From Synechococcus sp. (lineage in GTDB: Bacteria > Cyanobacteriota > Cyanobacteriia > PCC-6307 > Cyanobiaceae), in NCBI GenBank assembly GCA_047284725.1, contig JBJBEO010000001.1, forward strand, positions 288,001-352,000: a stretch of DNA of 64,000 nt. The letters run 5' to 3'. This document shows, piece after piece, positions 27,134-39,918 of this stretch. A program made the position numbers and the translations under genes. Positions within the stretch are counted from its first letter, which is position 1; each line of letters opens with the position of its first letter. Below the pieces are notes generated by a model, which was given only the letters and a program-made list of their open reading frames with translations, did not search any database and had not been told where the DNA came from.

Positions 27134-28433
27134 GCCGTCATCATGCACTGATTCTGGACTGCCTGGATGGGTCTTGAGACAGCCCATGTCAGATGTCAAC
27201 CTCATGGCGACGCAGAGCACAAACCATTGCATTGAAATAAGGAGGTGAAAATCCAGATGCCCTCATGGTGGAAAGCTCACTCTGTGTTCTTCGGAGGACG
27301 TGATTGATTGAATTGATTGATCTTTGCTCAGAGTTTTCAGCAGTGTTGGGAACTTGTTGTTGGCCCCAAGCTTGCTTCCCATGTTTAGTCAAGGATGATT
27401 CGGGTGGCTAAAAGTGCTTTCCCATTGCAGACTGTGTGATGTTTTACGGTGAGATCCGATCGTTTGTTTTTCTTGATTTGACTTCTTGGAGATGCTTCCA
27501 TGCATTCTTTCGTGGCTGTTCGCGCTGCCTGATTTGGTACCAATAAAAAACCGCAGAGGCTTTTGGTCGGAGCAGATGGAGGCCTTTTTGTTGGTTCTCT
27601 TGGTAAGAAGTGTGGAAATGCTGCCTTTGTCTTCCTTCAGGCATCACGGTGATGAAGTTTCAATTCCCCCCTTTCTAAACTCTTGGGAAAAATAAAGCTC
27701 GGTGCGATGGCACTGCCTTTGAAAACGCTGCATGGAGATCTGCCAGATATCTTGTTGCAGTCCCTTAGAAGGAGGAGGTGTCGTTCTCTCTTTCATCTCA
27801 AGGTCAAAGTGTTGCTGAGTTAGGGGTCGTGCATTGAAATCATTGTTGTCTGGATCAAGCTTCTGCAAGGAGATATCAATTCCTTGTTGAAGAGGGCTTT
27901 GCTTTCGCCCTGGGATTTCATTCCCTGGGTACGCTTAAAGGCTTTTGATCTTGGCACGATTACTTCTTTTCATGCACCATGCAAGGCCAGGTAATTCCTG
28001 GATGGTTTGTTTTTTTTGTTGATGGAAAGTGTATGCTTTTCGTTGGATGCGGAGCCCATGGGGCTTAGGGCTGGTCTTGCCAGGTCGCCTTGCGGCAAGG
28101 TCGCCAAGAATGACATTGGCTTAAAGTGCTGACTAGTGCCATGACTAGTAATGGCAAAAACCTCGTAAAACTCGCTGATAGGAGAGGTTGAGAATGTATG
28201 GATGCTATGCCTTAGTAGAGACAGCTTTCGTAAAAGTGCCCAAATATTTTTTGTGTTGTGGAGTATGAGCCTTGTTCGAGTTTCGATTTATTGGCAACGA
28301 GCCAATTGCAAGTGAATGTCGATTGCTTGCTGTTTGGCTTAGGCATTGCTGCGTACTCTATTGGTTGCAATTTTATATAAAGCGACCATTGCTCTTGCGG
28401 TCACTTTAAAATTCATCAGATCAGTTTTTTGAG

Positions 28434-29444
28434 ATGGAAGAGAGCTTGCAGGAATGCCTAGGACGCTTTGAAGCATTGGGAGGTGTTGCAGAAAATGTTT
28501 GCCAAAGAGAAGGGGACTTTGGGCGCGGCATGTTTCCCGTTGATGCATCGCGCAGTGCGAAAATCATGGCCCCCAAGAACCTTCTTGTTGACAGCGGCAA
28601 TCTGGGGATTTGTGGCGGTGAAATTATGATCAAAGACAAAGCTCGTTATACGGCCCAGGAGGCGGCATTTTTGGGAGATTACTATAATAATTATTCGTGG
28701 GGTAATAATGGAAACAGTGACTCTGCTTCTTTCCTGAAGTTTATTGCTTCTTTGTCAAGCACGATCAAGAAACAGCTTCTTGTCAATGGATTTGTTGATC
28801 GCAAGCTTCTTGGCTACTGTGACGATAGCGATCATTTATTAAAACGATTTATTGATGAGAGGGTCGTCGAATTTCATGGCCGTAATGTGCTTGCTCCTGT
28901 ATGGGAATTTGTGAATCACAGTTCGTTTGTGCCTCCGCTTAGAGTAACTCCTCATGGAGTCGAAACACCACCAATGGAGCGGGGTTCAGGAGAGATTCTT
29001 TTTAAATATAGTGCAAAAAATAGCCCTATGGGCATGTGGAGAAAATATGGATTTGCGTGCAGTTGCGTTGTGGCTTATAGCATTCCTTTTGAAATGACTG
29101 TTGACAATCAACCTCTCTCGGTCAGTTGCTCCGGTCAGCTTGGTTCAGATTCTAAGGATGGGAAAAACTTCTCTGTTGTTGGCAACAGGCTATTGATTAA
29201 GTCTTTGCCGGTGGGTTGTTTATCCGTTGGCCTTCCATTTTCTAACTTTTCTTCGATTTTAGCTTCGGTTGGCTTATCGCAAGCGACTGCGAATAAGTTG
29301 TTCTCAAGAATCCTCGAAGCCAATATTAAGGCCCGCTGCGATCTGATTGGTCTGTTTCAAGGGCCTGGGTTGGGCGCCCAAGCTCAATTGCACAAAGCCT
29401 TGTCCTATGAGATTAGTCTTATTGAGAGCTCTTCGCTTGATTAA
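28434..29444 (+). CDS. putative SET-domain (LSMT/SETD3-like) protein methyltransferase
   Basis: GRGMF (aa 30-34), LAPVWEFVNHS (N161-H162), GEILFKY (Y192) and KYGF (Y205) in the order seen in LSMT-type SET enzymes. Confidence 0.6.
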   Translation: MEESLQECLGRFEALGGVAENVCQREGDFGRGMFPVDASRSAKIMAPKNLLVDSGNLGICGGEIMIKDKARYTAQEAAFLGDYYNNYSWGNNGNSDSASFLKFIASLSSTIKKQLLVNGFVDRKLLGYCDDSDHLLKRFIDERVVEFHGRNVLAPVWEFVNHSSFVPPLRVTPHGVETPPMERGSGEILFKYSAKNSPMGMWRKYGFACSCVVAYSIPFEMTVDNQPLSVSCSGQLGSDSKDGKNFSVVGNRLLIKSLPVGCLSVGLPFSNFSSILASVGLSQATANKLFSRILEANIKARCDLIGLFQGPGLGAQAQLHKALSYEISLIESSSLD

Positions 29445-31158
29445 TCGATCTGTCTGTGCAGGCTATGTCTTTGATGAATTGTTCACCGAGGGATGAGATA
29501 GCCTCTACGTAGGTTAAGTTGTTGAGATTATTTTTATTCTGACTGATTGCTTCTTGGGCGAATTCTCTAAGGTTTTTCATGTCTCCTTCGTTGTAGATGC
29601 TCACTAGATTTGATAGTGCTTCGGGATTGTCAGGATTGATTTCGAGTGATTTGAGGGTAGAAGCAAGTGCTTCGTCAAGATTGCCAAGTTCTTTGTAGAT
29701 GCTGCCCAGGTTCATGTGGGCAGCAGGGTTGTCGGGCTTGAGCTCCAGGGATTGGAGAGTGGAGGCAAGTGCTTGGTCAAGCTTGCCGAGGTCTTTGTAG
29801 ATGTTGCCCAGGTTTATGTGGGCAACAGGGTTGTCGGGCTTGAGCTCCAGGGATTGGAGAGTGGAGGCAAGTGCTTGGTCAAGGTTGCCAAGGGATTTGT
29901 AGATGTTACCCAGGTTCATGTGGGCATCGGGGTTATTGGGCTTGATCTCGAGTGATTTGAGTGTTGAAGTAAGTGCATGATCAAGGTTGCCGAGATCTTC
30001 GTAGATGCAGCCCAGGTTCATGTAGGCAGCAGGGTTGTCAGGCTTGATTTCGATTGATTTGAGTGTTGAAGCAAGTGCTTGATTAAGGCTGCCGAGGTCT
30101 TTGTAGATGTTCCCCAAATTTACGAGAGCAGCAGGGTTGTCGGGCTTGATTTCGATTGATTTGAGTGTTGAGGCAAGTGCTTGATCGAAGTTGCCGAGGT
30201 CTTTATAAATGCTTCCCAGATTCATGTGGGCATCAGCGTTGTCAGACTTAATTTCGAGTGATTTGAGTGTTGAGGCAAGTGCTTGATCGAAGTTGCCGAG
30301 GTCTTTATAAATGCAGCCCAAGTTCATGTGGGCATCGGGGTTATCAGGATTAAGCTCCAGGGATTGACGGGTGGAAGTCAGTGCTTGATTGAAGTTGCCG
30401 AGGTCTTTATAAATGCTGCTCAGGAACATGTGGGCGTCAATATTATTGGGATTGAGCTCCAGGGACTGAAGGACGGAATTAATCGCTTGATCAAGGTTGC
30501 CGAGTTCTTTATAGATGCTGCCCAGGTAGATGTATGCATCAGCGTTGCCAGGTTTGAGTTTGAGTGATTCAAGGACGCAGTCAATCGCTTTCTCGAAGTT
30601 TCCAAGTGTTTTGTAAAAGCTGGCCAGGTTCGTGTACGCATCAGGGTTGTCAGGCTTGAGCTCTAAGTACTGAATGGTGGAGGCAATTGCTTGCTCGAGC
30701 TTGCCAAGATCTTTGTAGATGCTGCTTAAATTGAGGTGATAAACTGCGAAAGCAGGATCGAGATTGCGAGCCCTTTTGACTAACTCTTTTGCGGTGCCAA
30801 GGTCTCCCTGGTCTTTGTAGATCAAGCCAAGGTTGTTGAGTGCTGGTGCATAGTCTGGATCAATCAATAGAGCTGCCTTGTAATATTTTATTGCTTCCGC
30901 TTGGTTCTGTAGGGCTTTGAAGATGTTGCCAAGATCCTTGAGTGTCTCGGGATCGTTGTTGTCTAGATTGTGAGCTTTGGATAGGCACTCTTGAGCCTTT
31001 TCAAGTTGCCCCAAAGCGCGTAATGATTTTGCGGCGAACTTCCAGGCGTCAATATTATTGGGCTCGCTTTGAAGCAGTTGTTGGCAAGCCTGGAGGCACT
31101 CTGGATGGCGTCCAGTGGTTGATAATTCCTGAATGATCTTTTTGTCCACCGAGTGCAA
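29419..31158 (-). CDS. tetratricopeptide repeat protein (~15 TPRs, no catalytic domain)
   Basis: 34-aa repeats with consensus PDAHMNLGxIYKDLGNLDQALASTLKSLELKPDN; start (TTG) uncertain. Confidence 0.92.
   Translation of the reverse strand: MHSVDKKIIQELSTTGRHPECLQACQQLLQSEPNNIDAWKFAAKSLRALGQLEKAQECLSKAHNLDNNDPETLKDLGNIFKALQNQAEAIKYYKAALLIDPDYAPALNNLGLIYKDQGDLGTAKELVKRARNLDPAFAVYHLNLSSIYKDLGKLEQAIASTIQYLELKPDNPDAYTNLASFYKTLGNFEKAIDCVLESLKLKPGNADAYIYLGSIYKELGNLDQAINSVLQSLELNPNNIDAHMFLSSIYKDLGNFNQALTSTRQSLELNPDNPDAHMNLGCIYKDLGNFDQALASTLKSLEIKSDNADAHMNLGSIYKDLGNFDQALASTLKSIEIKPDNPAALVNLGNIYKDLGSLNQALASTLKSIEIKPDNPAAYMNLGCIYEDLGNLDHALTSTLKSLEIKPNNPDAHMNLGNIYKSLGNLDQALASTLQSLELKPDNPVAHINLGNIYKDLGKLDQALASTLQSLELKPDNPAAHMNLGSIYKELGNLDEALASTLKSLEINPDNPEALSNLVSIYNEGDMKNLREFAQEAISQNKNNLNNLTYVEAISSLGEQFIKDIACTDRSINQAKSSQ
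29630..30750 (-). repeat. 102-bp tandem coding repeats (TPR units)
   Basis: Recurring near-identical DNA such as gggttgtcgggcttgagctccagggattggagagtggaggcaagtgcttggtcaag at 102-bp spacing. Confidence 0.9.
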
Positions 31159-31241
31159 TTGGCGTTGCTCAAGATCGATTCTACTGTGATTGAGCGATTT
31201 CTCCAGGTACCTCTAAAGCAAACTTCTGATTGCTCAGCCGC

Positions 31242-31483
31242 TCAGTCTCTCTGTATTCCCTCTCCACATCGCCCTGTCTGACGGTCAAGCTTTCTCTGCA
31301 TGTAAGGCGTGATCCCCAGTTCACCATTACGCCAGAGGCGATCCATCTCACGGGTGAAATGGGCTGCCACCTGAGGTGAATCGATCACCAGCAGGGTTTA
31401 ATCGTTGGTGTGGGCTGCGGACGGGCTCCAGTTGAACGATCCTGTGACCACTGTTTTGTTGTCGATCACGGCGAACTTGTGGT
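31242..31483 (-). pseudogene. displaced 3' end of the PLD-family gene (att remnant)
   Basis: Collinear with 38422-38663 at a constant 7180-bp offset; encodes HKFAVIDNKTVVTGSFNWSPSAAHTND*TLLVIDSPQVAAHFTREMDRLWRNGELGITPYMQRKLDRQTGRCGEGIQRD*; 47-bp identity 31401-31447/38581-38627. Confidence 0.92.
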
Positions 31484-31648
31484 CGACATCCCTGAGATGC
31501 TCCTGGTGATGGGAGGTTTCAGAGCAGCTGAGGATGAGTGAGCCAAAAGACGAGCCAACCAGGGGTGTTTTGGAGGGTTCAGATGGGGTTTTGGCTTGGC
31601 TTGCGGTGGTGGAGCTGATAGGCCGGATTGCAGTTGTGGAGCTGGATC

Positions 31649-32701
31649 TTGAGTAACAAGCCGGCGTTGCGGCGGAACAACGGCAGCATTGTGATCCGGG
31701 TGCGGATCGATGGGGAAGACAAGCGGATCTATCGGTTATGCCGCTGGGATGATCCGGTAGCGGTTGCCAGAGCCCAGGCGATTGCTGCTGAGATCTGGAG
31801 CGATATCCATCGGGGTGAACTGGATGCATCGTTGAGCCGGTATCGCCCTTTGGTGGAGGAAGAGGAGTCCGATTTGATCCGAGGCCTCAAGCACTTGATG
31901 GAGATCAAGCGTCAGGGCCGGGTGACCCACGCGTATCGGACAGTTCAGAGATATGGCCGCTCGATCAGAACCAGCACAGAAGCGGAGGGGGTCGTGGTTT
32001 GGATGCAGCAGCAAGGCCTTGCTGCATCAACGCAGTCAACGATCCTGAGCACGATCCGCAGTGTGCAACCAAGAAACAACGCCCTGCAGGCGGTGAGGGT
32101 GAAGGTGCCTGCCAGACGAGTTCAGGAGGAAGTGCCGAGCAGGCATGAGATCCAGGCGGTTCTGGAGGATCTCAAGACGCATGAACGATGGTTCTATCCA
32201 GTGTTTGCACTGTGGTTAGGAACTGGTTCGCGGAACGCGGAGGTGATTGGTTTGAGCTGGGATGCAGTGCGGTTGGAGGATGGCGAACTGCTGATCCACA
32301 AGACCCTGAAGCGCGATGGAACAGCGACGCATCGACGCACCTGGAGCACCACCAAAACCGGTAGGAGTCGCGTGGTTCCTCTCCGGGAGGATCTGGTGGT
32401 TTTGCTCCAGGTGCACCAGCAGCGGATGAAGTGTCTGGGACTGGATGTTCAGAGGGGACTGGTGTTCGTCACCCACAGAACCCACCGTCACCTCTATGAC
32501 TCAGGGTTGGAGAAGGTGTGGAAGCGATCTCAGCAGCGGGTTGGACTGATGCCAAGGCGTTTGTATGCCCAACGCCATTCCTTCTTGAGTCACGCCTTAG
32601 CAATGGGGAACTCTCCTGCGGATCTTGCTGCTGTTTCCGGCCATCATTCTCTTGTCAATTTGTTTAAAAGATTTGAGTTTATGAATCGAACTTACCGATG
32701 A
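31649..32701 (+). CDS. tyrosine recombinase/integrase with N-terminal arm-binding domain, probably C-terminally damaged
   Basis: TGSRNAE (catalytic R), KTGRSRVVPL, YAQRHSF, LAAVSGH; N-terminal region resembles an arm-DNA-binding domain; no Tyr at the expected distance after GH; start uncertain (TTG 31628 or 31649). Confidence 0.88.
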   Translation: MSNKPALRRNNGSIVIRVRIDGEDKRIYRLCRWDDPVAVARAQAIAAEIWSDIHRGELDASLSRYRPLVEEEESDLIRGLKHLMEIKRQGRVTHAYRTVQRYGRSIRTSTEAEGVVVWMQQQGLAASTQSTILSTIRSVQPRNNALQAVRVKVPARRVQEEVPSRHEIQAVLEDLKTHERWFYPVFALWLGTGSRNAEVIGLSWDAVRLEDGELLIHKTLKRDGTATHRRTWSTTKTGRSRVVPLREDLVVLLQVHQQRMKCLGLDVQRGLVFVTHRTHRHLYDSGLEKVWKRSQQRVGLMPRRLYAQRHSFLSHALAMGNSPADLAAVSGHHSLVNLFKRFEFMNRTYR

Positions 32702-32717
32702 GCATTGGCGGCATAAT

Positions 32718-33521
32718 TTAAGATTCTCTTCGGTATTGTTCTCTCGCTAGTATTGCAACAAGCAACGTATACAAGCTGATGATTAGCAGCTGATAAAATG
32801 ACAGAAAGGGTATTTGTCTTTCGATAATGATGTCTGAACCAAACATCCCCGAACGACTTCCCTTCACAATTAGGACGCCCTTTCGATACTTGTCAATGGT
32901 TTTCTCGATTGATGATGGCTGGATTGATATACTTTTGATATTAAGGCTTGAATGATTAATAAGGCTAGAAAAAATATCACTTAGCCTTGGGTCAGGTATT
33001 CTTTTGCCAAAATAAAGGCATCCATAATTAACCTCGCTTTTGCTACTTTCTGTTGGCGAGATAGGTGATGAGCTTATTAGATATGTGCTGCCAAAAATTG
33101 CCGTAAAGCTACTTCCGCATTCTTGGAATGATGAGGAAATTTCTTTAGTGGTTTCGGGATTTATAGATTCAAACGACTGAGTGTCTTCGCTCCAAACTTT
33201 GCCAGAAACCGGCTCTTTGGCCTCGTTGATGACAATCGCTATCTGAATAACTCTCGATGTATCTTCATTAAAGTTGTCGATAAAGTAATTCTCATATCGC
33301 TGTTTAACCAACTCAACTGTGTCGTCCCAGCTAGCCCAGTCATAAACGTTCGCTTCGTTTTGTTCTACCAAAGCGCTAATAGAATCATTTATTCTATTTG
33401 ATATTTGCTCGTCAACGATTCTGTTGGATCTTATTGATTGAATGGAAGCAGATACAAATAAAAGAGTAGCAAGAGTAATCTGTGCGTAGTAGCCTTGCTT
33501 GCGTTTAAATTCGATAGCCAT
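32718..33521 (-). CDS. membrane sensor with CHASE4-like domain, no output domain
   Basis: TM - extracytoplasmic domain with YDWASWDDT motif and GCLYFGK - TM, then stop. Confidence 0.7.
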   Translation of the reverse strand: MAIEFKRKQGYYAQITLATLLFVSASIQSIRSNRIVDEQISNRINDSISALVEQNEANVYDWASWDDTVELVKQRYENYFIDNFNEDTSRVIQIAIVINEAKEPVSGKVWSEDTQSFESINPETTKEISSSFQECGSSFTAIFGSTYLISSSPISPTESSKSEVNYGCLYFGKRIPDPRLSDIFSSLINHSSLNIKSISIQPSSIEKTIDKYRKGVLIVKGSRSGMFGSDIIIERQIPFLSFYQLLIISLYTLLVAILAREQYRRES

Positions 33522-33531
33522 TGGGTTAAGT

Positions 33532-34023
33532 TTATAACCGACTGAAAACTGACTTTTGCATTAGTCCCATTAGAGCTTTACGATCTTCTTCCCCAACGCG
33601 CATGTCATATACAAATAGTTGGTCGCCTGCTCCACGCTTAATATAAACGTCAACTGGTATCAAATCCCCCCCGATGTTTTTGGCTGAAACGCAGAGTACA
33701 AAATTGTCTTTGTTCTCATGAATAAAAATTTCTGGGTGATGCTTAACTATATACAGCGATTCTACTGCCCCCGTATTATTGTTGAGGTAGGCAAATGATT
33801 CGTCGGCGACTAAAGTCTCTAAAAAATTAAGCATCTTTGAATGTAATGAAAGTTTAAGCCCGCCATTCTCTAATTCTTTGTTGGCAATGTTTTGATTTTC
33901 TGCTAATTGCTCTGTGGGATTTGCTGGACTGGCATCCTCGTCTTTACTGGTTGATTCGCTTTGAAATTCACAGCCCGTTAGCAACAGAATCGCAAGTGCC
34001 AACGATGATTTTGTAAAGCTCAT
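33532..34023 (-). CDS. hypothetical lipoprotein
   Basis: MSFTKSSLALAILLLTGC lipobox; 10 bp upstream of the CHASE4 gene. Confidence 0.75.
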   Translation of the reverse strand: MSFTKSSLALAILLLTGCEFQSESTSKDEDASPANPTEQLAENQNIANKELENGGLKLSLHSKMLNFLETLVADESFAYLNNNTGAVESLYIVKHHPEIFIHENKDNFVLCVSAKNIGGDLIPVDVYIKRGAGDQLFVYDMRVGEEDRKALMGLMQKSVFSRL

Positions 34024-34118
34024 AGATTTTCTTCTAGCATCCTTAGCTATAATAAATGGTTGTTGGCTTAAGGGAGGGCATTGACTTATCTCTTGATCTC
34101 TTCACTTGGCCTTAACCG

Positions 34119-36335
34119 TTGGACTTTAGTCGTTTACACAAATTAAGACGGATCAAATTCTCGGCAGCGCTTCCGTCACTGGTGGGGGTTGTTGTTTTTT
34201 ATACTGTCCTTTTCGCATATTCTGAGTATCAGGCAAAAAATACCTACGACGATTTTTATTCTTCCTCGGCTAGATCGTTGGCATTCGCCAACAAGCTATT
34301 AGGCACCTCTTTAGGTTTTTCTTCGGATAAATTATCCTTGCTTCAGGATAAAAAAGCGAAGGATTTGTTGCGTCTATTGTCTCTAAATGCAAATGCTCAA
34401 TGTCTTTCTATTGAGGGGGAATCATATACGCTTTTTTATCCACCAGGTCAATTTTGCTTTTCTGGAGGTGATCCAATTGTAATTCAGGACAAGCTGCAAA
34501 AATCTTCAGGACTATCTTTGAAATTATACATTGATGGCGAATCTGTTTCTAATGTAGTCGATCAAAATCGTCTTGTTAGCTATATTGGCGGAACTCTTTT
34601 GGTCTTAGGGGCTCTCGCATCTGCTTCAATTTATTCCTATCGCAAAGCATTGAGGCAACGTTATGAGACAGATCGCTTGATTGACAAGATCATTGCATCT
34701 AGTCCGAATCCCTATATTATTGTTGATCAAAACTTTAGGATTGCCTCTATCTCTGATTCCTTGAGCGGTCTTCTCCTCGATACTGCCGATCATCAGAGTA
34801 CTGACAGAGCTCATAATGATTCGTCTGTTGACTTGACATGCTTCTTTTCCTCTGATTCGGCAGAGCGTATTGTGTCTTTTTTGTCTCAATTAAACATAGA
34901 TGAATTTAAGGGTTCGGTGTCTTTGAGGGATTTGAATGTCGCCTTCAAGAAGACCTTGGTTTTTGCTTCATCTATTTCTGTTATACGTAATTCTACGACT
35001 TCTAATTTCTTTTTTAGTCTTTTTGATGAAACACAATCTTCTGTCCAGAAAAGCTATTTAGCTGAGCAGTTGAGTAGAGACTCTCTCACTGGGGCATTCT
35101 CTCGTAGATATTTATTTGAAACCTATGGAGGGGTATCACGCAAAGATCAGTATTGCCTCTTTCTGATAGATCTCGATGACTTTAGGGATATCAACGATTC
35201 TTATGGGCATGATGCTGGTGATCAGCTTTTGTTTGCATTTGCATCGGTCTTGGCTGCGTTTAGTGCTCGTAATCAGGGTGAAGTCTATCGACTTGGTGGT
35301 GATGAGTTTGTTGTTCTGTTGAAGGTTTCCAATGTTAATTTGTTGTCTTCTTTCAGTGAGAGCTTACATGCTTTGTCGGAAATTTCGTTTCTTTATATGG
35401 AGCGTCCAATTAACAACACATTCTCTTTTGGATCAACGGTGTTTGCTTCCTCTGAATGTTTGTCGGATGCGTTGAAGCGTGCGGATGAGGCTCTAATCCA
35501 GGCTAAAAAAAGTGGGAAAAAAGCATATGTCGTGGCTGAAAAAAATAAGTTAATTGATGGCCTTTTCTCCATATCACATCAAGCTAGCCTCAGTCTTACA
35601 GAGACAAAGGAGGCTTTTAACGCTGGCCATCTTGAGTTGTATCTTCAGCCAGTTTTTAATACCGTTTTGAGTTCTTTCGTTGGCTATGAGGCACTTGTCC
35701 GTCTGCATCGTGATAGTCATTTGATTTCTCCTGCTGCTTTTTTGGACTCCTTGTATAAGCTTTCTGCGCGTTCTGATTATGTAATTGATCATTATGATCT
35801 GCTTGCAGATCTATTTGTAAAATTGCCAGATGGTGGTGATTTCTGGATCTCCTATAATGTGAATGAGGTTGACCTTAGTGATAATTGCTTTGAGAGATTG
35901 CTAGATGCTCTCAAATGTCGTACGGGAGACTACAAGGATCGGATTGTACTTGAGATTTCCGAAACTACCTTCCAGGCTACTCAGTATTCATCCTCTCTTT
36001 TGGACCGTATTTCACTCTTGAAGTCTAAGGGCTTTAGGCTCGCACTCGACGATTTTGGTGTTCTCTCGTCGAATATTTTTGCTTTATCAAATTTACCGGT
36101 TGATATTGTCAAGCTTGACAAGTTTTTGGTGACTGGCATTCGCGAGAATCTTAAAAATCAACGGATCATCGAGTCGTTAAGGTCTCTCTCTGAATCTCTT
36201 GATTTTGAATTGATAGCTGAAGGCATTGAGTCCACTGACGAAGCAGCCTGTTTGGAAGGTTTGGGCATCGTGCTGCATCAGGGCTTTCTCTATGGGAGAC
36301 CATCACCCATTACCGATTTCCTCTCGTCCATGTAG
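34119..36335 (+). CDS. membrane-bound GGDEF-EAL protein (diguanylate cyclase/phosphodiesterase) with PAS-like segment
   Basis: Two TMs, PAS-like region, DSLTG, DLDDF..INDSYGHDAGD, RLGGDEF, YLQP, GYEALVR, LALDDFG, VKLDK, AEGIE, QGFLYGRP. Confidence 0.93.
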   Translation: MDFSRLHKLRRIKFSAALPSLVGVVVFYTVLFAYSEYQAKNTYDDFYSSSARSLAFANKLLGTSLGFSSDKLSLLQDKKAKDLLRLLSLNANAQCLSIEGESYTLFYPPGQFCFSGGDPIVIQDKLQKSSGLSLKLYIDGESVSNVVDQNRLVSYIGGTLLVLGALASASIYSYRKALRQRYETDRLIDKIIASSPNPYIIVDQNFRIASISDSLSGLLLDTADHQSTDRAHNDSSVDLTCFFSSDSAERIVSFLSQLNIDEFKGSVSLRDLNVAFKKTLVFASSISVIRNSTTSNFFFSLFDETQSSVQKSYLAEQLSRDSLTGAFSRRYLFETYGGVSRKDQYCLFLIDLDDFRDINDSYGHDAGDQLLFAFASVLAAFSARNQGEVYRLGGDEFVVLLKVSNVNLLSSFSESLHALSEISFLYMERPINNTFSFGSTVFASSECLSDALKRADEALIQAKKSGKKAYVVAEKNKLIDGLFSISHQASLSLTETKEAFNAGHLELYLQPVFNTVLSSFVGYEALVRLHRDSHLISPAAFLDSLYKLSARSDYVIDHYDLLADLFVKLPDGGDFWISYNVNEVDLSDNCFERLLDALKCRTGDYKDRIVLEISETTFQATQYSSSLLDRISLLKSKGFRLALDDFGVLSSNIFALSNLPVDIVKLDKFLVTGIRENLKNQRIIESLRSLSESLDFELIAEGIESTDEAACLEGLGIVLHQGFLYGRPSPITDFLSSM

Positions 36336-36461
36336 TGGGCTGTATGTGGAGAATATTTTCTTTTCTAAATTTTCCACTTGCTCGTTGTTGATGGCTGGTC
36401 AGATTCACCGGTAAGTTTGTATCCTGGATATCTTACTCTTGCAAGATTCACCCAGCTCAAA

Positions 36462-36600
36462 TCAGTCTCTCTCCATTCTGCTGGCGCACTGTTCACTGAA
36501 GTGTCCGCTGCATCCGTGCGGCGACTCCGACTTCCTCCCAATGCCAGACCCATTCCATCTCGTGCATGATGAAGGCAGCGAATTGGGTTGATCCGATCAT
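36462..36600 (-). pseudogene. second, degraded copy of the PLD gene 3' end
   Basis: 26-bp identity ctgaagtgtccgctgcatccgtgcgg with the PLD 3' region near 38464; translates MIGSTQFAAFIMHEMEWVWHWEEVGVAARMQRTLQ, aligning with IIESPQLAKHFTREMDRLWRGAELGITARMQRTLQ. Confidence 0.8.
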
Positions 36601-36806
36601 GCGCTTAATGAAGTTTTTTGAGGGATCTGCAGATGCATGACCATCAAAGCATATCTTCGTAATTGTCCAATAAGATAATTTTTAAGTATTTACCCCTACA
36701 GCTTTAGGTGTATTACGCAAAGAAAAAAAATTTATAGCAAACCTTTTTCTTGTTTTTTCGTGCGGGCTTGGGCTATTGTCTTAAATGAGACTAGTGGATT
36801 GATGAC

Positions 36807-38300
36807 GTGAGTACTCTCCCGCGGCTGTCTTCCAAGCTCTGCATATCTGCTGCTATTGCTGTAACTGGAATCGGCTTCAGCCTACTCATCGCTCGCAGAA
36901 CATATGACCTCATTTATCCCTCATTGCGTTCTTTGGGTAATACAACAACAAGCTACCTTTCCACTTGGAATTGCAAAAAAACGCACGAGCTTCTTTCTGA
37001 GTTAACAGTGCATCGCTTAAGGGCTCAAAATCACCAATCACATGCTGGACATGGCGATACCATCCCCGCAGTTGATGTCATTTTGGGAACATACTCGCCC
37101 ATGGATGGTAGAGTTAGTGATTTTCATTCCTTAGTACCAGCCTCTCGGCAGTCTGTGCAGATTATTGAGTCGTTTATTGGCAAAGATAAGTTAGACGCTA
37201 ATGCTGACAAGATTCATGATCATTCCGACACTACTGCAACGTCTTCTCGTCCATCAGTAGAAATTTCACCTATTATATCTGCTCCTAATAAATATCTCTC
37301 TGAGTCGGCTTGTGAGCAGTTAAAGCATGGGCTTTCTCCTCAAAATGTACATATTTATGCACTGGACTTTGCTCAATTTGAAGCTCTTGCGCAAGATCCA
37401 CGCGCCGATGACACCTGGATGCTCTTCCTGTATGGACCTTGGCAAGATTCTCGCGGTAAACCAAGTTACTCTTTCGCAATCTCAAGAATATCACCTCATT
37501 ACGTAGAGATAAACGGAAAACGAACGCCTCTCAGGTCACTCCTCCCAGCGGGAGCAGGCGAGGTGTCTGTACAAGTCAATGTGGTCCCAATTGATAGTGC
37601 TAAGACATCTGCTCGCCTTGTTAAAGCCTTCCCTTTCCTTCTAGATTCAGAAGATACGTTGAGTTCACATAAAATTCTCCCATTTGCAAATAACATATAT
37701 TCAATTTCTTCTGCTGTTTCGTCTGACTCTTTTGAAAAAGCGTCTATTGGTGCATCCCTGCCTTTTGCAATATTAGGTGTTCTGATGTCTTTGGCGATTG
37801 CCGCTTTGGTCTACAGGCTGCAGTCATACTTTGAAAGTCGGCACGACCTTGTTCTTGCCGAAAGTCGAACTGACAACTTAACCAAAATACCAAACAGGCG
37901 GTCTTGGGATGAGCGTTTGAAATCTTCTGAACTTCAGCGTTTGAATTCAAAAAGACAGTTTCATGTTATTGTTGTTGACCTGAATGCTTTTAAGGAGATC
38001 AATGATTCACTGGGCCATGAGTATGGTGATCAGTTGCTGCAAAAAGCATCTGGTTCTTTGGCCTCTGTGTTGAGAGGTGAAGAGGATTTTGTTGCACGTT
38101 TAGGCGGTGACGAATTTGGTTTGATTTTTAGTGGGACTGAGGTTTCGCCTGAGGCATTAACAGCCAGAGTCAAGAAGCAATTGAAGGACGATAAAATCAA
38201 CGCAGCCGTGGGAATCGGTTCTACTTCCATTCAGCGTTCTGTTCATGATGCCTGGTCTGATGCTGATAAGGGAATGTATGTCGACAAGAAAGCGATTTGA
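36807..38300 (+). CDS. membrane-bound diguanylate cyclase (sensor-GGDEF)
   Basis: TM-sensor-TM, TDNLTKIPNRR, DLNAFKEINDSLGHEYGD, RLGGDEF, ADKGMY. Confidence 0.92.
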   Translation: MSTLPRLSSKLCISAAIAVTGIGFSLLIARRTYDLIYPSLRSLGNTTTSYLSTWNCKKTHELLSELTVHRLRAQNHQSHAGHGDTIPAVDVILGTYSPMDGRVSDFHSLVPASRQSVQIIESFIGKDKLDANADKIHDHSDTTATSSRPSVEISPIISAPNKYLSESACEQLKHGLSPQNVHIYALDFAQFEALAQDPRADDTWMLFLYGPWQDSRGKPSYSFAISRISPHYVEINGKRTPLRSLLPAGAGEVSVQVNVVPIDSAKTSARLVKAFPFLLDSEDTLSSHKILPFANNIYSISSAVSSDSFEKASIGASLPFAILGVLMSLAIAALVYRLQSYFESRHDLVLAESRTDNLTKIPNRRSWDERLKSSELQRLNSKRQFHVIVVDLNAFKEINDSLGHEYGDQLLQKASGSLASVLRGEEDFVARLGGDEFGLIFSGTEVSPEALTARVKKQLKDDKINAAVGIGSTSIQRSVHDAWSDADKGMYVDKKAI

Positions 38301-38421
38301 GTAGTTGTGGATCTGTTGTTTAATGGCTGTCGTCGCGTCCTGACAACCAAGTACGCTGCTTTGCCCTTTTCTTTGTGACGAGTTTTGCGGATCATTTCTT
38401 TAGGTCAATGCCCGAGCCAAC

Positions 38422-39840
38422 TCATCCCCTCCGGGTCCCACTGCCGCATTGCTCCCGTCGTCGCTGAAGTGTCCGCTGCATCCGTGCGGTGATGCCAAGT
38501 TCCGCCCCACGCCAGAGGCGGTCCATCTCACGGGTGAAGTGTTTGGCGAGTTGGGGTGACTCGATGATCAGGAGCGTTTCATCGTTGGTGTGGGCTGCGG
38601 ACGGGCTCCAGTTGAACGATCCTGTGATCACGGTTTTGTTATCGATCACGGCGAACTTGTGGTGCAGCTTGTCGCCGTGGGCGAGACGTGGGGTGCCGAC
38701 ACCCTTGAGGGGGCGTTCCAAGGGTTTGTTCCCTGCCTCCAGTTTGCAGAAGCGGTCGGGCATGGAGAGGCCAAGGAGATCAAGCACCTCTGAGAACGGC
38801 CGGCTTGCAAAGCCTGGATCGGCCAAGAGCCGCACGTCGGTGCCTTCATCGATTTTGTCGGCCAAGGTGTCCGTCAGCTCCTGGGCGGAAAAGACAAACA
38901 ACGCCAGATCGATGCTGTGCCTGGCTTGGTTGAGTTCATGCTTGATCAGGTGAAGGCCGTGCTTGGGATTGTGTCTGGCATGGGGAGCAAACAGCACGGT
39001 GATACGGCTGTCTACAACCCTCACGGTTGCTCCGTTGGGATCCCCTTTGCCGCGGCCAAAACGGCTGTTCTCAAGTCCGCCGGGGCCATCGCCCCACATC
39101 CGGTTGAACTCAGTCGTGAAGACGGCGGCCAAGGCAGCACTGTCGATCCGCAGCAGGTGGTTGACGTTGCCGCGGGTGCGAGGTGCTCCGGCATCGCCAT
39201 GCATGCCGGAGCTCGTGAAGTTGGCGCTGCCGCTGATCACCACCCGTTGATCCACCACCACGAACTTGTGGTGCATGAGACCACTTCCCTTGCTGCCGTC
39301 TTCGGTGTCGTCGATTCTGGGCACGGAACCACGGTCGAGCTGAGCCAAGGCATCTCCTTGTTGCTCTTCGTCTGTGGTGATGAGCCCATTGCCATCGCTG
39401 TCGGCGAGTTGACGCAGTCGGTGCAGGCGTCGCCGTTCGTGCTTGTTGAGATCGCTTTCATGGAGGTCGCTCCACGGGGTGCTGTACGTGTTCTCCAGCA
39501 CGACGCGGACATCAACGCCCCGTTGCTGGGCCCGGACGAGGGCCTCGGCGATGGCCGGAAGGCTGAGCTCTTGCACTGCAACGAAGCAGTCTTTCTCGGC
39601 GGCATCGATCGCATCGATCACCATTTGCTCGAGATTGTCGCCGTTGCGCCAGTGGCCATCGAGGGGGCTGCGATAGCGGCTTCCATCACGGTGGTTGAAC
39701 GCCAAGGTGATGTGGTCGGGTAGTGGCGGATCGTCCGCAGCTCTACCGAGCAGCTCCCCGGGTTGGCTGCAACCAACACACAGCAAGGGAAGCAAGGCGA
39801 GAAGAGCCGTCCTCAGTGTGCCTGTCGTGTTGTGGTTCAT
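38422..39840 (-). CDS. phospholipase D-family (Nuc-like) nuclease lipoprotein, related to the cyanobacterial ComA N-terminal region
   Basis: Lipobox LCVGC; two HKD motifs (MHHKFVVVD..GSANF; LHHKFAVID..GSFNW); no C-terminal HhH domain seen. Confidence 0.88.
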   Translation of the reverse strand: MNHNTTGTLRTALLALLPLLCVGCSQPGELLGRAADDPPLPDHITLAFNHRDGSRYRSPLDGHWRNGDNLEQMVIDAIDAAEKDCFVAVQELSLPAIAEALVRAQQRGVDVRVVLENTYSTPWSDLHESDLNKHERRRLHRLRQLADSDGNGLITTDEEQQGDALAQLDRGSVPRIDDTEDGSKGSGLMHHKFVVVDQRVVISGSANFTSSGMHGDAGAPRTRGNVNHLLRIDSAALAAVFTTEFNRMWGDGPGGLENSRFGRGKGDPNGATVRVVDSRITVLFAPHARHNPKHGLHLIKHELNQARHSIDLALFVFSAQELTDTLADKIDEGTDVRLLADPGFASRPFSEVLDLLGLSMPDRFCKLEAGNKPLERPLKGVGTPRLAHGDKLHHKFAVIDNKTVITGSFNWSPSAAHTNDETLLIIESPQLAKHFTREMDRLWRGAELGITARMQRTLQRRREQCGSGTRRG

Positions 39841-39918
39841 CGGATCCCGCACCCCTGAGAGGATCATTCCCCGCAGCATCCTGGAGGGATCAGGGTGACT
39901 CGCTGACCCGTGGGGCCA

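Follow-up and report, generated by a model that had tools for sequence, protein, structure and literature searches.

We present evidence that the chromosome of a marine Synechococcus sp. carries, between positions 31242 (or about 27233) and 38663 of the 64,000-nucleotide stretch analysed here, an island that very probably arose by site-specific integration of a mobile element into the second HKD motif of a conserved gene of the PLD family. The stretch (assembly GCA_047284725.1, contig JBJBEO010000001.1, positions 288,001-352,000 of the forward strand) is referred to in its whole length as the window, and the genome to which it belongs as G000. The case is carried by a direct repeat of the 3' end of the PLD gene, by junctions that are conserved across genomes, by the association of one integrase clade with PLD fragments, by an empty site in a congener and by a recombination breakpoint at the core of the attachment (att) site. 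An original prediction for this DNA had proposed an integrative element that has its att site in the PLD HKD motif and supplies the gene with a replacement C-terminus, and the junctions, the empty site and the breakpoint all support it.

The direct repeat and the att junction

The elements of the proposed att site and of the gene that it interrupts are laid out in the window as follows.

38664-39879, minus strand: chromosomal 5' part of the PLD gene (codons 1 to about 405), with the first HKD motif and a predicted N-terminal signal or lipoprotein-like region
38642-38663, minus strand: attL core, a 22-bp block identical in both copies of the repeat and encoding (H)HKFAVID
38422-38663, minus strand: putative replacement 3' end brought by the element, comprising the last 80 codons of the PLD gene and its stop, in frame with the 5' part
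31242-31483, minus strand: displaced PLD 3' fragment on the attR side, a pseudogene, with the core at 31462-31483 and an in-frame TAA at 31398-31400
31484-31627, plus strand: P arm of the att site, from the core to the integrase start, with CATCTCA(A/G)GGATGT, kept among type-1 elements, beside the core
31628-32701, plus strand: tyrosine integrase gene, 3'-truncated, whose homology to intact relatives ends at 32643

The direct repeats 31242-31483 and 38422-38663 lie at a constant offset of 7180 bp. Their coordinates, equal length and offset, all given in the original prediction, were confirmed by alignment, by a repeat finder (31241-31483 against 38421-38663, 76% over 243 nt) and by BLAST comparison of the two copies within the window (blastn, 85% over 175 nt, E 1.5e-53; tblastn, 76% over 78 amino acids, E 3e-34), and the two different C-termini quoted there are likewise correct. 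Homology halts directly past 31483 and 38663, that is, abruptly at the 22-bp HKD repeat as had been claimed; this 22-mer is identical between the copies and, read in the sense of the gene, codes for (H)HKFAVID of the second HKD motif. The first mismatch between attL and attR in the window falls at +23, and the two copies are nearly identical over about 90 nt. An integrase does indeed follow the left copy, reading away from it, but it starts at 31628, 145 bp from the repeat and not the roughly 165 bp first supposed.

On the element side, type-1 junctions consist of CATCTCA(A/G)GGATGT followed by the 22-mer and are conserved across genomes, while a second common P-arm type stops 7 nt further in (...GCGAAC/TGGTYTG in integrase orientation, the stroke marking the junction). 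Since the two P-arm types end at different points, what every junction type retains is, at minimum, the block GTTCGC(C/T)GTGATCGA, which encodes F-A-V-I-D, and we infer that the strand-exchange region lies within it. After the core, the signature TAACAAAACC is common to the gene-attached copies of the window and of G080, a genome of the same genus, the native congener type being CAACAAAACA. Dyad symmetry in the core was considered as a means of placing the overlap: the candidate ATCAC-N9-GTGAT fits the PLD core and approximately that of uvrA, and does not fit that of mpg (the targets of the sister integrases described below). As a separate observation, the DNA of the first HKD motif (39250-39275) is 85% identical to the att core (22 of 26 nt) and is a potential secondary site; no insertion was seen at 39250-39275.

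Related loci and the empty site

In relatives the chromosomal backbone reads o165, DUF4912, PLD, a variable segment, B168 and phosphoglucomutase. In the congener G037 this site is empty, with the PLD stop at most 115 bp from the B168 homologue and with neither fragment nor integrase between them. Within a sample of 151 Cyanobiaceae genomes, 13 match the integrase at E 1e-10 or better. G080 has PLD, 9 kb of other genes, the integrase (62% identical, with one in-frame TGA), a PLD fragment 144 bp away from it and B168; G109, G004 and G105 each hold an integrase relic and a PLD fragment; G149 carries two intact integrases, with four PLD fragments in tandem downstream of a full-length PLD gene; and G025 carries two integrases with stops and three PLD fragments, with no full-length PLD gene. 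All eight places that have an integrase of at least 60% identity (two each in G149 and G025, one in G080) or a relic (G004, G105, G109) adjoin a PLD fragment, and in these places, which come from six genomes, as well as in the window, the integrase lies about 145-225 bp from a PLD C-terminal fragment and in divergent orientation to it.

The association extends to further collections. A scan of named genome contigs with the window integrase as a single-protein query gave no matches; an alignment-based scan did yield loci, 27 in all, among which the four integrases at 64-85% identity (in Vulcanococcus, Cyanobium and Synechococcus metagenome-assembled genomes, MAGs) all have a PLD fragment and the 23 more distant ones have none. 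From metagenomes we obtained 80 integrase loci at 63-74% identity, 43 of them informative, with the integrase N-terminus present and 200 nt or more of sequence upstream of it; a PLD fragment on the opposite strand is present in 40 of these 43, and two others show only the core, their flank being too short. Moreover, ten PLD-associated integrases form one clade in the integrase tree, with a Shimodaira-Hasegawa-like approximate likelihood-ratio (SH-aLRT) support of 100. The expectation that integrase homologues would sit beside PLD 3' duplicates ending in the HKFAVID codons, and that genomes with an empty site would exist, was therefore borne out on both counts (8/8, 4/4 and 40/43 loci; G037).

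The same island was also found at about 98-99% identity in contigs of three metagenome studies, at a depth similar to that of the flanking PLD gene, and this cover fits a fixed island in a natural lineage; some runs leave parts of the stretch uncovered. Viral contigs gave one 3.5-kb match at 48% identity and nothing pointing to phage. Separately, in many of the loci L084-L163 the integrase starts close to a contig end, at a distance between a few and a few hundred nt, which would fit repeated PLD fragments breaking assemblies; if they do, such islands would be under-represented in short-read MAGs.

The recombination breakpoint

Joining the two flanks of G080 at the core and aligning G135, a further congener, to them gives 72-97% identity upstream of the core and 98-100% for about 1.7 kb from it; counted from the 22-mer, the last mismatch lies at -2 and the one after it at +75. 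Beyond these 1.7 kb identity is mostly 86-95%, with one 200-nt gapped window at 44%. In agreement, the displaced fragment of G080 is 99.2% identical to the 3' end of the G135 gene, the gene-attached copy of G080 82.4% and the 5' parts of the two genes 86.8%; the parts of the PLD gene on either side of the breakpoint thus have different histories (99.2% vs 86.8%), as had been anticipated. The shared 1.7-kb segment (L049 5992-~7700 against L035 13747-~15450) starts exactly at the att core, and at this segment G135 has neither integrase nor fragment; the G135 segment is likely an integrase-less remnant or a recent transfer. A tree of the PLD 3' ends (240 columns, poorly resolved) does not separate the attL and attR (element-borne and native) classes, with five changes each and no better than shuffles, and its informative pairings are only G080/G135/G037 and G080/G109.

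The original prediction had also pointed to identity that is highest near the breakpoint and decays toward the stop. The decay is real (28, 28, 28, 21, 25, 20, 15 and 16 matches per 30 nt between the window copies), but orthologue pairs decay likewise (e.g. G135 against G066: 24, 29, 28, 25, 22, 19, 21 and 17), and the gradient thus reflects mainly protein conservation. Only at third codon positions of the first 37 codons is the window pair somewhat more alike, agreeing at 30 of 37 against 17-24 of 37 for the eight other PLD 3' ends compared.

The target gene

The PLD gene is an intact open reading frame (ORF) of 485 amino acids (38422-39879, minus strand) whose last 80 codons align with those of its orthologues. 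Pfam matches PLDc_2 in two stretches (6.4e-48) and PLDc also in two stretches, and the two HxK(x)4D motifs, at 39250-39275 and 38642-38663, are those of a two-HKD member of the PLD superfamily; taken singly, the halves look like nucleases with one HKD motif. In NCBIfam the top rows are DrmC (77 bits, cut-off 133) and NucT (74 bits, cut-off 297), all rows being below cut-off, and the best PDB matches, Zucchini/MitoPLD, Nuc and NucT, cover the second domain only (residues 311-458). Judged by these nearest named families the product would be Nuc-like, and the earlier description of it as 'ComA-like', with a role in DNA uptake, is unsupported: its nearest neighbours, below cut-offs, are NucT, DrmC and Nuc/Zucchini-type HKD nucleases.

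Matches to the gene occur in 88 of the 151 family genomes, and it is split or frameshifted in G149 (which also bears two intact integrases), G118, G122 and G050. Considering these damaged copies and the 63 genomes that have no match, the target appears to be conserved but not essential, and dispensable in some lineages. In G132 another insertion, of 25 kb, splits PLD between codons 426 and 427 (NWSP/SAAH) without a duplication (L043 ~10355, L042 ~3690), and within this insert lie a serine resolvase and a protein that has the N-terminal domain of type I restriction HsdR; as a candidate for the same kind of event it was rejected, given the lack of a duplication and the serine resolvase in the insert.

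The window integrase

The integrase of the window matches Pfam Phage_integrase (PF00589) with 55.7 bits against a cut-off of 27.1 (E 6.9e-15; residues 173-342, profile positions 6-159 of 172). It diverges from its relatives after GH(H), at nucleotide 32643, and its last 16 codons are unrelated AT-rich sequence; the point of truncation coincides with a switch in G+C content (GC) from 0.58 in the integrase to 0.40 in the cargo. Intact relatives end in GH(R/S)TxxLLxTYAKPTGR, with the Tyr nine residues after the His, whereas LLxTYAKPTGR is missing from the window protein and no Tyr stands at the His+9 spacing. The closest relative found (L057, 85% identical) keeps the intact C-terminal end. Metagenome contigs carry the truncated junction, and they also carry continuations with the sequence of an intact end; the truncation is thus an allele of natural populations, not the product of faulty assembly. 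Since its integrase is without the C-terminal block that bears the catalytic tyrosine, the window element appears to be a now-immobile fossil.

A second integrase relic lies outside the window at G000:C1:2500449-2500733 (L002), with 37% identity and two stops; it adjoins a cluster of GGDEF genes at about 2501.6-2510.4 kb, and no recognisable target-gene fragment was found beside it.

Sister integrase clades

The proposal that this integrase family uses a PLD codon block as attB is supported for the PLD clade; the family as a whole is not confined to PLD, sister integrases lying at mpg and uvrA. In the mpg clade (G138 and loci L058-L080), integrases about 50% identical to that of the window have beside them, on their own strand, a fragment from the 5' part of mpg, the gene for DNA-3-methyladenine glycosylase. 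In G138 the full mpg gene stands at the other end of a 5-kb element (L081 583-861, 1050-2039 and 5349-6146), and the two mpg 5' copies are about 93% identical over about 235 nt, with homology ending at ...CACCACTGCGTCAA, the codons of YGIHHCVN. The mpg element thus appears to supply a new 5' end, not a 3' end. At uvrA, the integrases of L069, L070 (2555-2833, minus strand) and L073 adjoin the last ~84 uvrA codons on the opposite strand, in copies that begin with the codons of EHNLDVI or ahead of them. Read in the same integrase orientation (GATCAC..CGA..TTGTG.T), the PLD core matches that of uvrA at 15 of 20 positions, a likeness that is suggestive only, because both encode H-x-x-x-V-I. No recognisable target fragment was found at L060 and L067, which belong to the mpg clade, or at L076, which is frameshifted and outside the tree.

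Island layout and cargo

The remaining features of the island and of the DNA to its left are the following.

27233-31241, no strand: low-GC stretch (GC 0.45-0.47), missing from the G037 empty site
28434-29444, plus strand: ORF of 336 amino acids inside the low-GC stretch
29419-31158, minus strand: TPR protein of 579 amino acids, with about 13 tandem 102-bp (34-codon) units at 63-100% identity to the reference unit
32718-33521, minus strand: cargo, CHASE4-domain protein of 267 amino acids (Pfam CHASE4, 1.7e-13)
33532-34023, minus strand: cargo, ORF of 163 amino acids with no family match
34119-36335, plus strand: cargo, GGDEF-EAL protein of 738 amino acids (Pfam EAL, 8.8e-42; GGDEF, 5.4e-27)
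~36454-36695, minus strand: third, decayed PLD 3' fragment, recognisable at 36493-36600, its core region no longer recognisable
36807-38300, plus strand: cargo, GGDEF-domain protein of 497 amino acids (Pfam GGDEF, 4.2e-30; NCBIfam GGDEF domain; GC 0.44)

Low GC (0.40-0.50 against 0.60-0.65) spans about 27200-38400 and so continues to the left of the left copy. The stretch 27233-31241 is probably older island material; no further PLD copy was found at the left edge of the low-GC region, at about 27 kb. TPR genes recur in or beside the related islands of G004, G032, G080 and G149. Within the island, the best part of the third PLD fragment (36493-36561) matches the right copy at 81% identity (blastn E 2e-13, tblastn E 1e-5); this fragment marks an older junction, and the insert, since it encloses such a decayed fragment, is composite. 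In the window no P-arm or integrase remnant was found beside the third fragment.

The GGDEF-EAL protein is c-di-GMP phosphodiesterase-like in its NCBIfam matches, which are below cut-offs. The cargo of related islands differs and is mostly without assignment, with AbrB-like regulators, TPR proteins, an acyltransferase-SGNH protein, methyltransferases and an IS200-like transposase among it. In the elements scanned, Pfam recognised no genes for replication, packaging, conjugation or excisionase, and a tRNA search with ARAGORN was negative for the window and for the PLD-type loci L035-L038; the elements appear to be minimal integrase-plus-cargo islands. The G000 genome as a whole has 22 GGDEF matches above the Pfam cut-off, and 30 congeners sampled have 0-4, with none in 22 of the 30, an expansion of c-di-GMP signalling that is striking for the group.

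Discussion

We suggest that integration would start from a circular element with the order integrase, P arm of about 145 bp, core and copy of the last 80 PLD codons, and that the tyrosine integrase would recombine attP with the chromosomal core inside the F-A-V-I-D codons, so that the 3' end brought by the element would continue the reading frame of the 5' part that stays in the chromosome. Since the exchange would fall within these codons, the H and K of HxK(x)4D(x)6GSxN would stay chromosomal, and the D and GSxN would come from the element. The native 3' end would be pushed to the far end of the element, beside the integrase, and would decay there. Repeated rounds would leave tandem units parted by relic fragments, and the window may hold at least two: unit A, comprising the integrase, CHASE4, the 163-aa ORF and GGDEF-EAL, and unit B, comprising the relic fragment, GGDEF and the functional 3' end. 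The window copy would by now be fixed, with the C-terminal block of its integrase lost. In this scheme it is the chemistry, the precise overlap and the sequence of events that we infer.

Several findings weigh against this interpretation. Metagenome locus L106 (1 of the 43 informative loci) has an integrase of the clade with neither PLD fragment nor core. The PLD fragments of G004, G105 and L127 reach about 24 codons upstream of the core, so that the homology edge is not universal and the exact point of crossover is best treated as approximate. Neither an excision joint (31483 to 38663) nor a circle was found in the contigs of four runs, contigs being prone to drop rare forms, and activity in any member of the family is a reading from sequence comparison. 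Unit B is without an integrase remnant. The 4 kb of low-GC DNA beyond the displaced fragment are outside the reach of the simple model, and the displaced fragment of the window groups with copies from other genera and not with the native 3' ends of its own genus. This fragment may have come with an earlier element instead of being the native end, and such an origin would be in keeping with the 4 kb of low-GC DNA (336-aa ORF and TPR protein) beyond it as well.

The variable homology edge bears on a reading in which integration is site-specific but the crossover lies further 3' in the 242-bp homology, the 22-mer being the end of captured PLD homology. Such a reading, which would also accommodate the near identity of attL and attR in the window and the ending of the two P-arm types at different points inside the 22-mer, seems to us unlikely, considering that in dozens of independent loci the P arm, of either type, stops inside these same 22 bp, that the G135/G080 breakpoint lies between -2 and +75 and that the window copies already differ at +23. 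The analogy with tRNA-targeting integrases points the same way: these enzymes are reported (Williams 2002) to cross over at the integrase-proximal edge of the identity block.

The widespread decay of the integrases (truncated in the window, interrupted by stops in G080 and G025, relics in G004, G105 and G109) and the near-identical 1.7-kb segment in G135 and G080, of which G135 has no integrase, could instead speak for a replacement island kept by homologous recombination, with the PLD 3' end and the flanking core genes as anchors and the integrase as a passenger. We regard this as very improbable: homology ends abruptly at one short block, the integrase keeps a fixed distance and orientation with a conserved P arm, integrase clades map one-to-one onto target genes, and homologous exchange would not yield direct partial duplications of its anchor. 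Taken by itself, the window with its two direct copies would even allow a one-off local duplication of the PLD 3' end near an unrelated integrase; the same architecture in many genomes and metagenomes, with different cargo, together with the empty site, refutes this and leaves it practically no probability. Site-specific integration at the second HKD motif is the reading that we retain.

The mechanism is a conventional one, that of a gene-restoring tyrosine-integrase island, and it is the target that is previously undescribed. Elements that insert into a protein-coding gene and bring a substitute for its displaced end are familiar, among them phage 21 and e14 in icd and SXT in prfC; these are single elements in enterobacteria or Vibrio and are not known as a clade-wide hotspot with tandem fossil arrays. 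TIGER/Islander (PMC12424338) is reportedly a large-scale catalogue of integrase islands that includes protein-coding targets. In the literature we found no PLD, mpg or uvrA site described in cyanobacteria, although such islands may already be listed in this catalogue or in the supplements of the tycheposon preprint.

The closest parallel may be the dusA-specific islands. As described by Farrugia et al. 2015 (PMC4482086), an integrase clade is dedicated to a conserved stretch of a protein gene, the island replaces the gene end, semiconserved direct repeats flank highly variable cargo, and relatives of the integrase occur at other genes with partly similar sites; excision was shown by polymerase chain reaction (PCR), and the affected residues are stated not to be known cofactor- or tRNA-binding residues. 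On that description the PLD islands share with them the dedicated integrase clade, the supplied gene end, the direct repeats, the variable cargo and the integrase relatives at other genes, and the window and its relatives show, as expected of a dusA-type island, an integrase at the junction, partial target copies, an intact reading frame and an empty site. They differ in the PLD target, in the joint inside a catalytic motif and in hosts that are picocyanobacteria and not Proteobacteria. The PLD islands also replace a 3' end, whereas the mpg sister clade, like the dusA islands, replaces a 5' part; and excision of dusA islands was demonstrated by PCR, while the mobility of PLD islands is read from comparing sequences.

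Tycheposons offer a second comparison. Those described use seven tRNA or tmRNA target genes (Hackl et al. 2020) or, in Synechococcus, tRNA-Phe, where tycheposon-like insertions have the recombinase distal, beside a partial target copy (Grebert et al. 2022, PMC8995045), an arrangement that the PLD islands share. The tree of Hackl et al. 2020 includes 'non-tRNA-associated' recombinases, whose sites the preprint does not describe. Tycheposons and PLD islands further have in common picocyanobacterial hosts, a tyrosine recombinase, niche-type cargo and an island that grows as one site is used again and again, its units set apart by incomplete target copies and broken integrases; tandem units of this kind are seen in the three PLD 3' copies of the window, the four fragments of G149 and the three of G025. 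PLD islands depart from tycheposons in their site, which lies in a protein-coding gene, with PLD fragments as the repeats and no tRNA, and in the replication, packaging and excisionase genes, none of which Pfam recognised in the elements scanned.

Considering the three target genes together, it is conceivable that the integrase family specialises in short codon blocks of catalytic motifs in conserved genes of the DNA-metabolism type (PLD HKD, mpg YGIHHC and uvrA EHNLDVI), switching between them via GATCAC-N2-CGA-N2-TTGTG, and that the chimeric active sites would amount to a domain-swapping system that diversifies or retunes a periplasmic nuclease-like enzyme and affects incoming DNA. We consider so broad a hypothesis unlikely. 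If it were true, each integration would make a chimeric active site, with the joint inside HxK(x)4D(x)6GSxN.

Finally, the islands of marine picocyanobacteria have so far been tied to tRNA and tmRNA genes, and the islands described here indicate that codons of a catalytic motif in a protein gene can seed islands likewise; in G000 the PLD island carries genes of c-di-GMP signalling. An integrase about 150 bp from a fragment of PLD, mpg or uvrA provides a marker by which such islands can be searched for. The one-to-one match of clade and target forms a natural series for studying how the specificity of tyrosine integrases changes, and most worth following is the wider pattern in which related integrase clades each keep to the catalytic-motif block of one conserved gene, a different gene for each clade.

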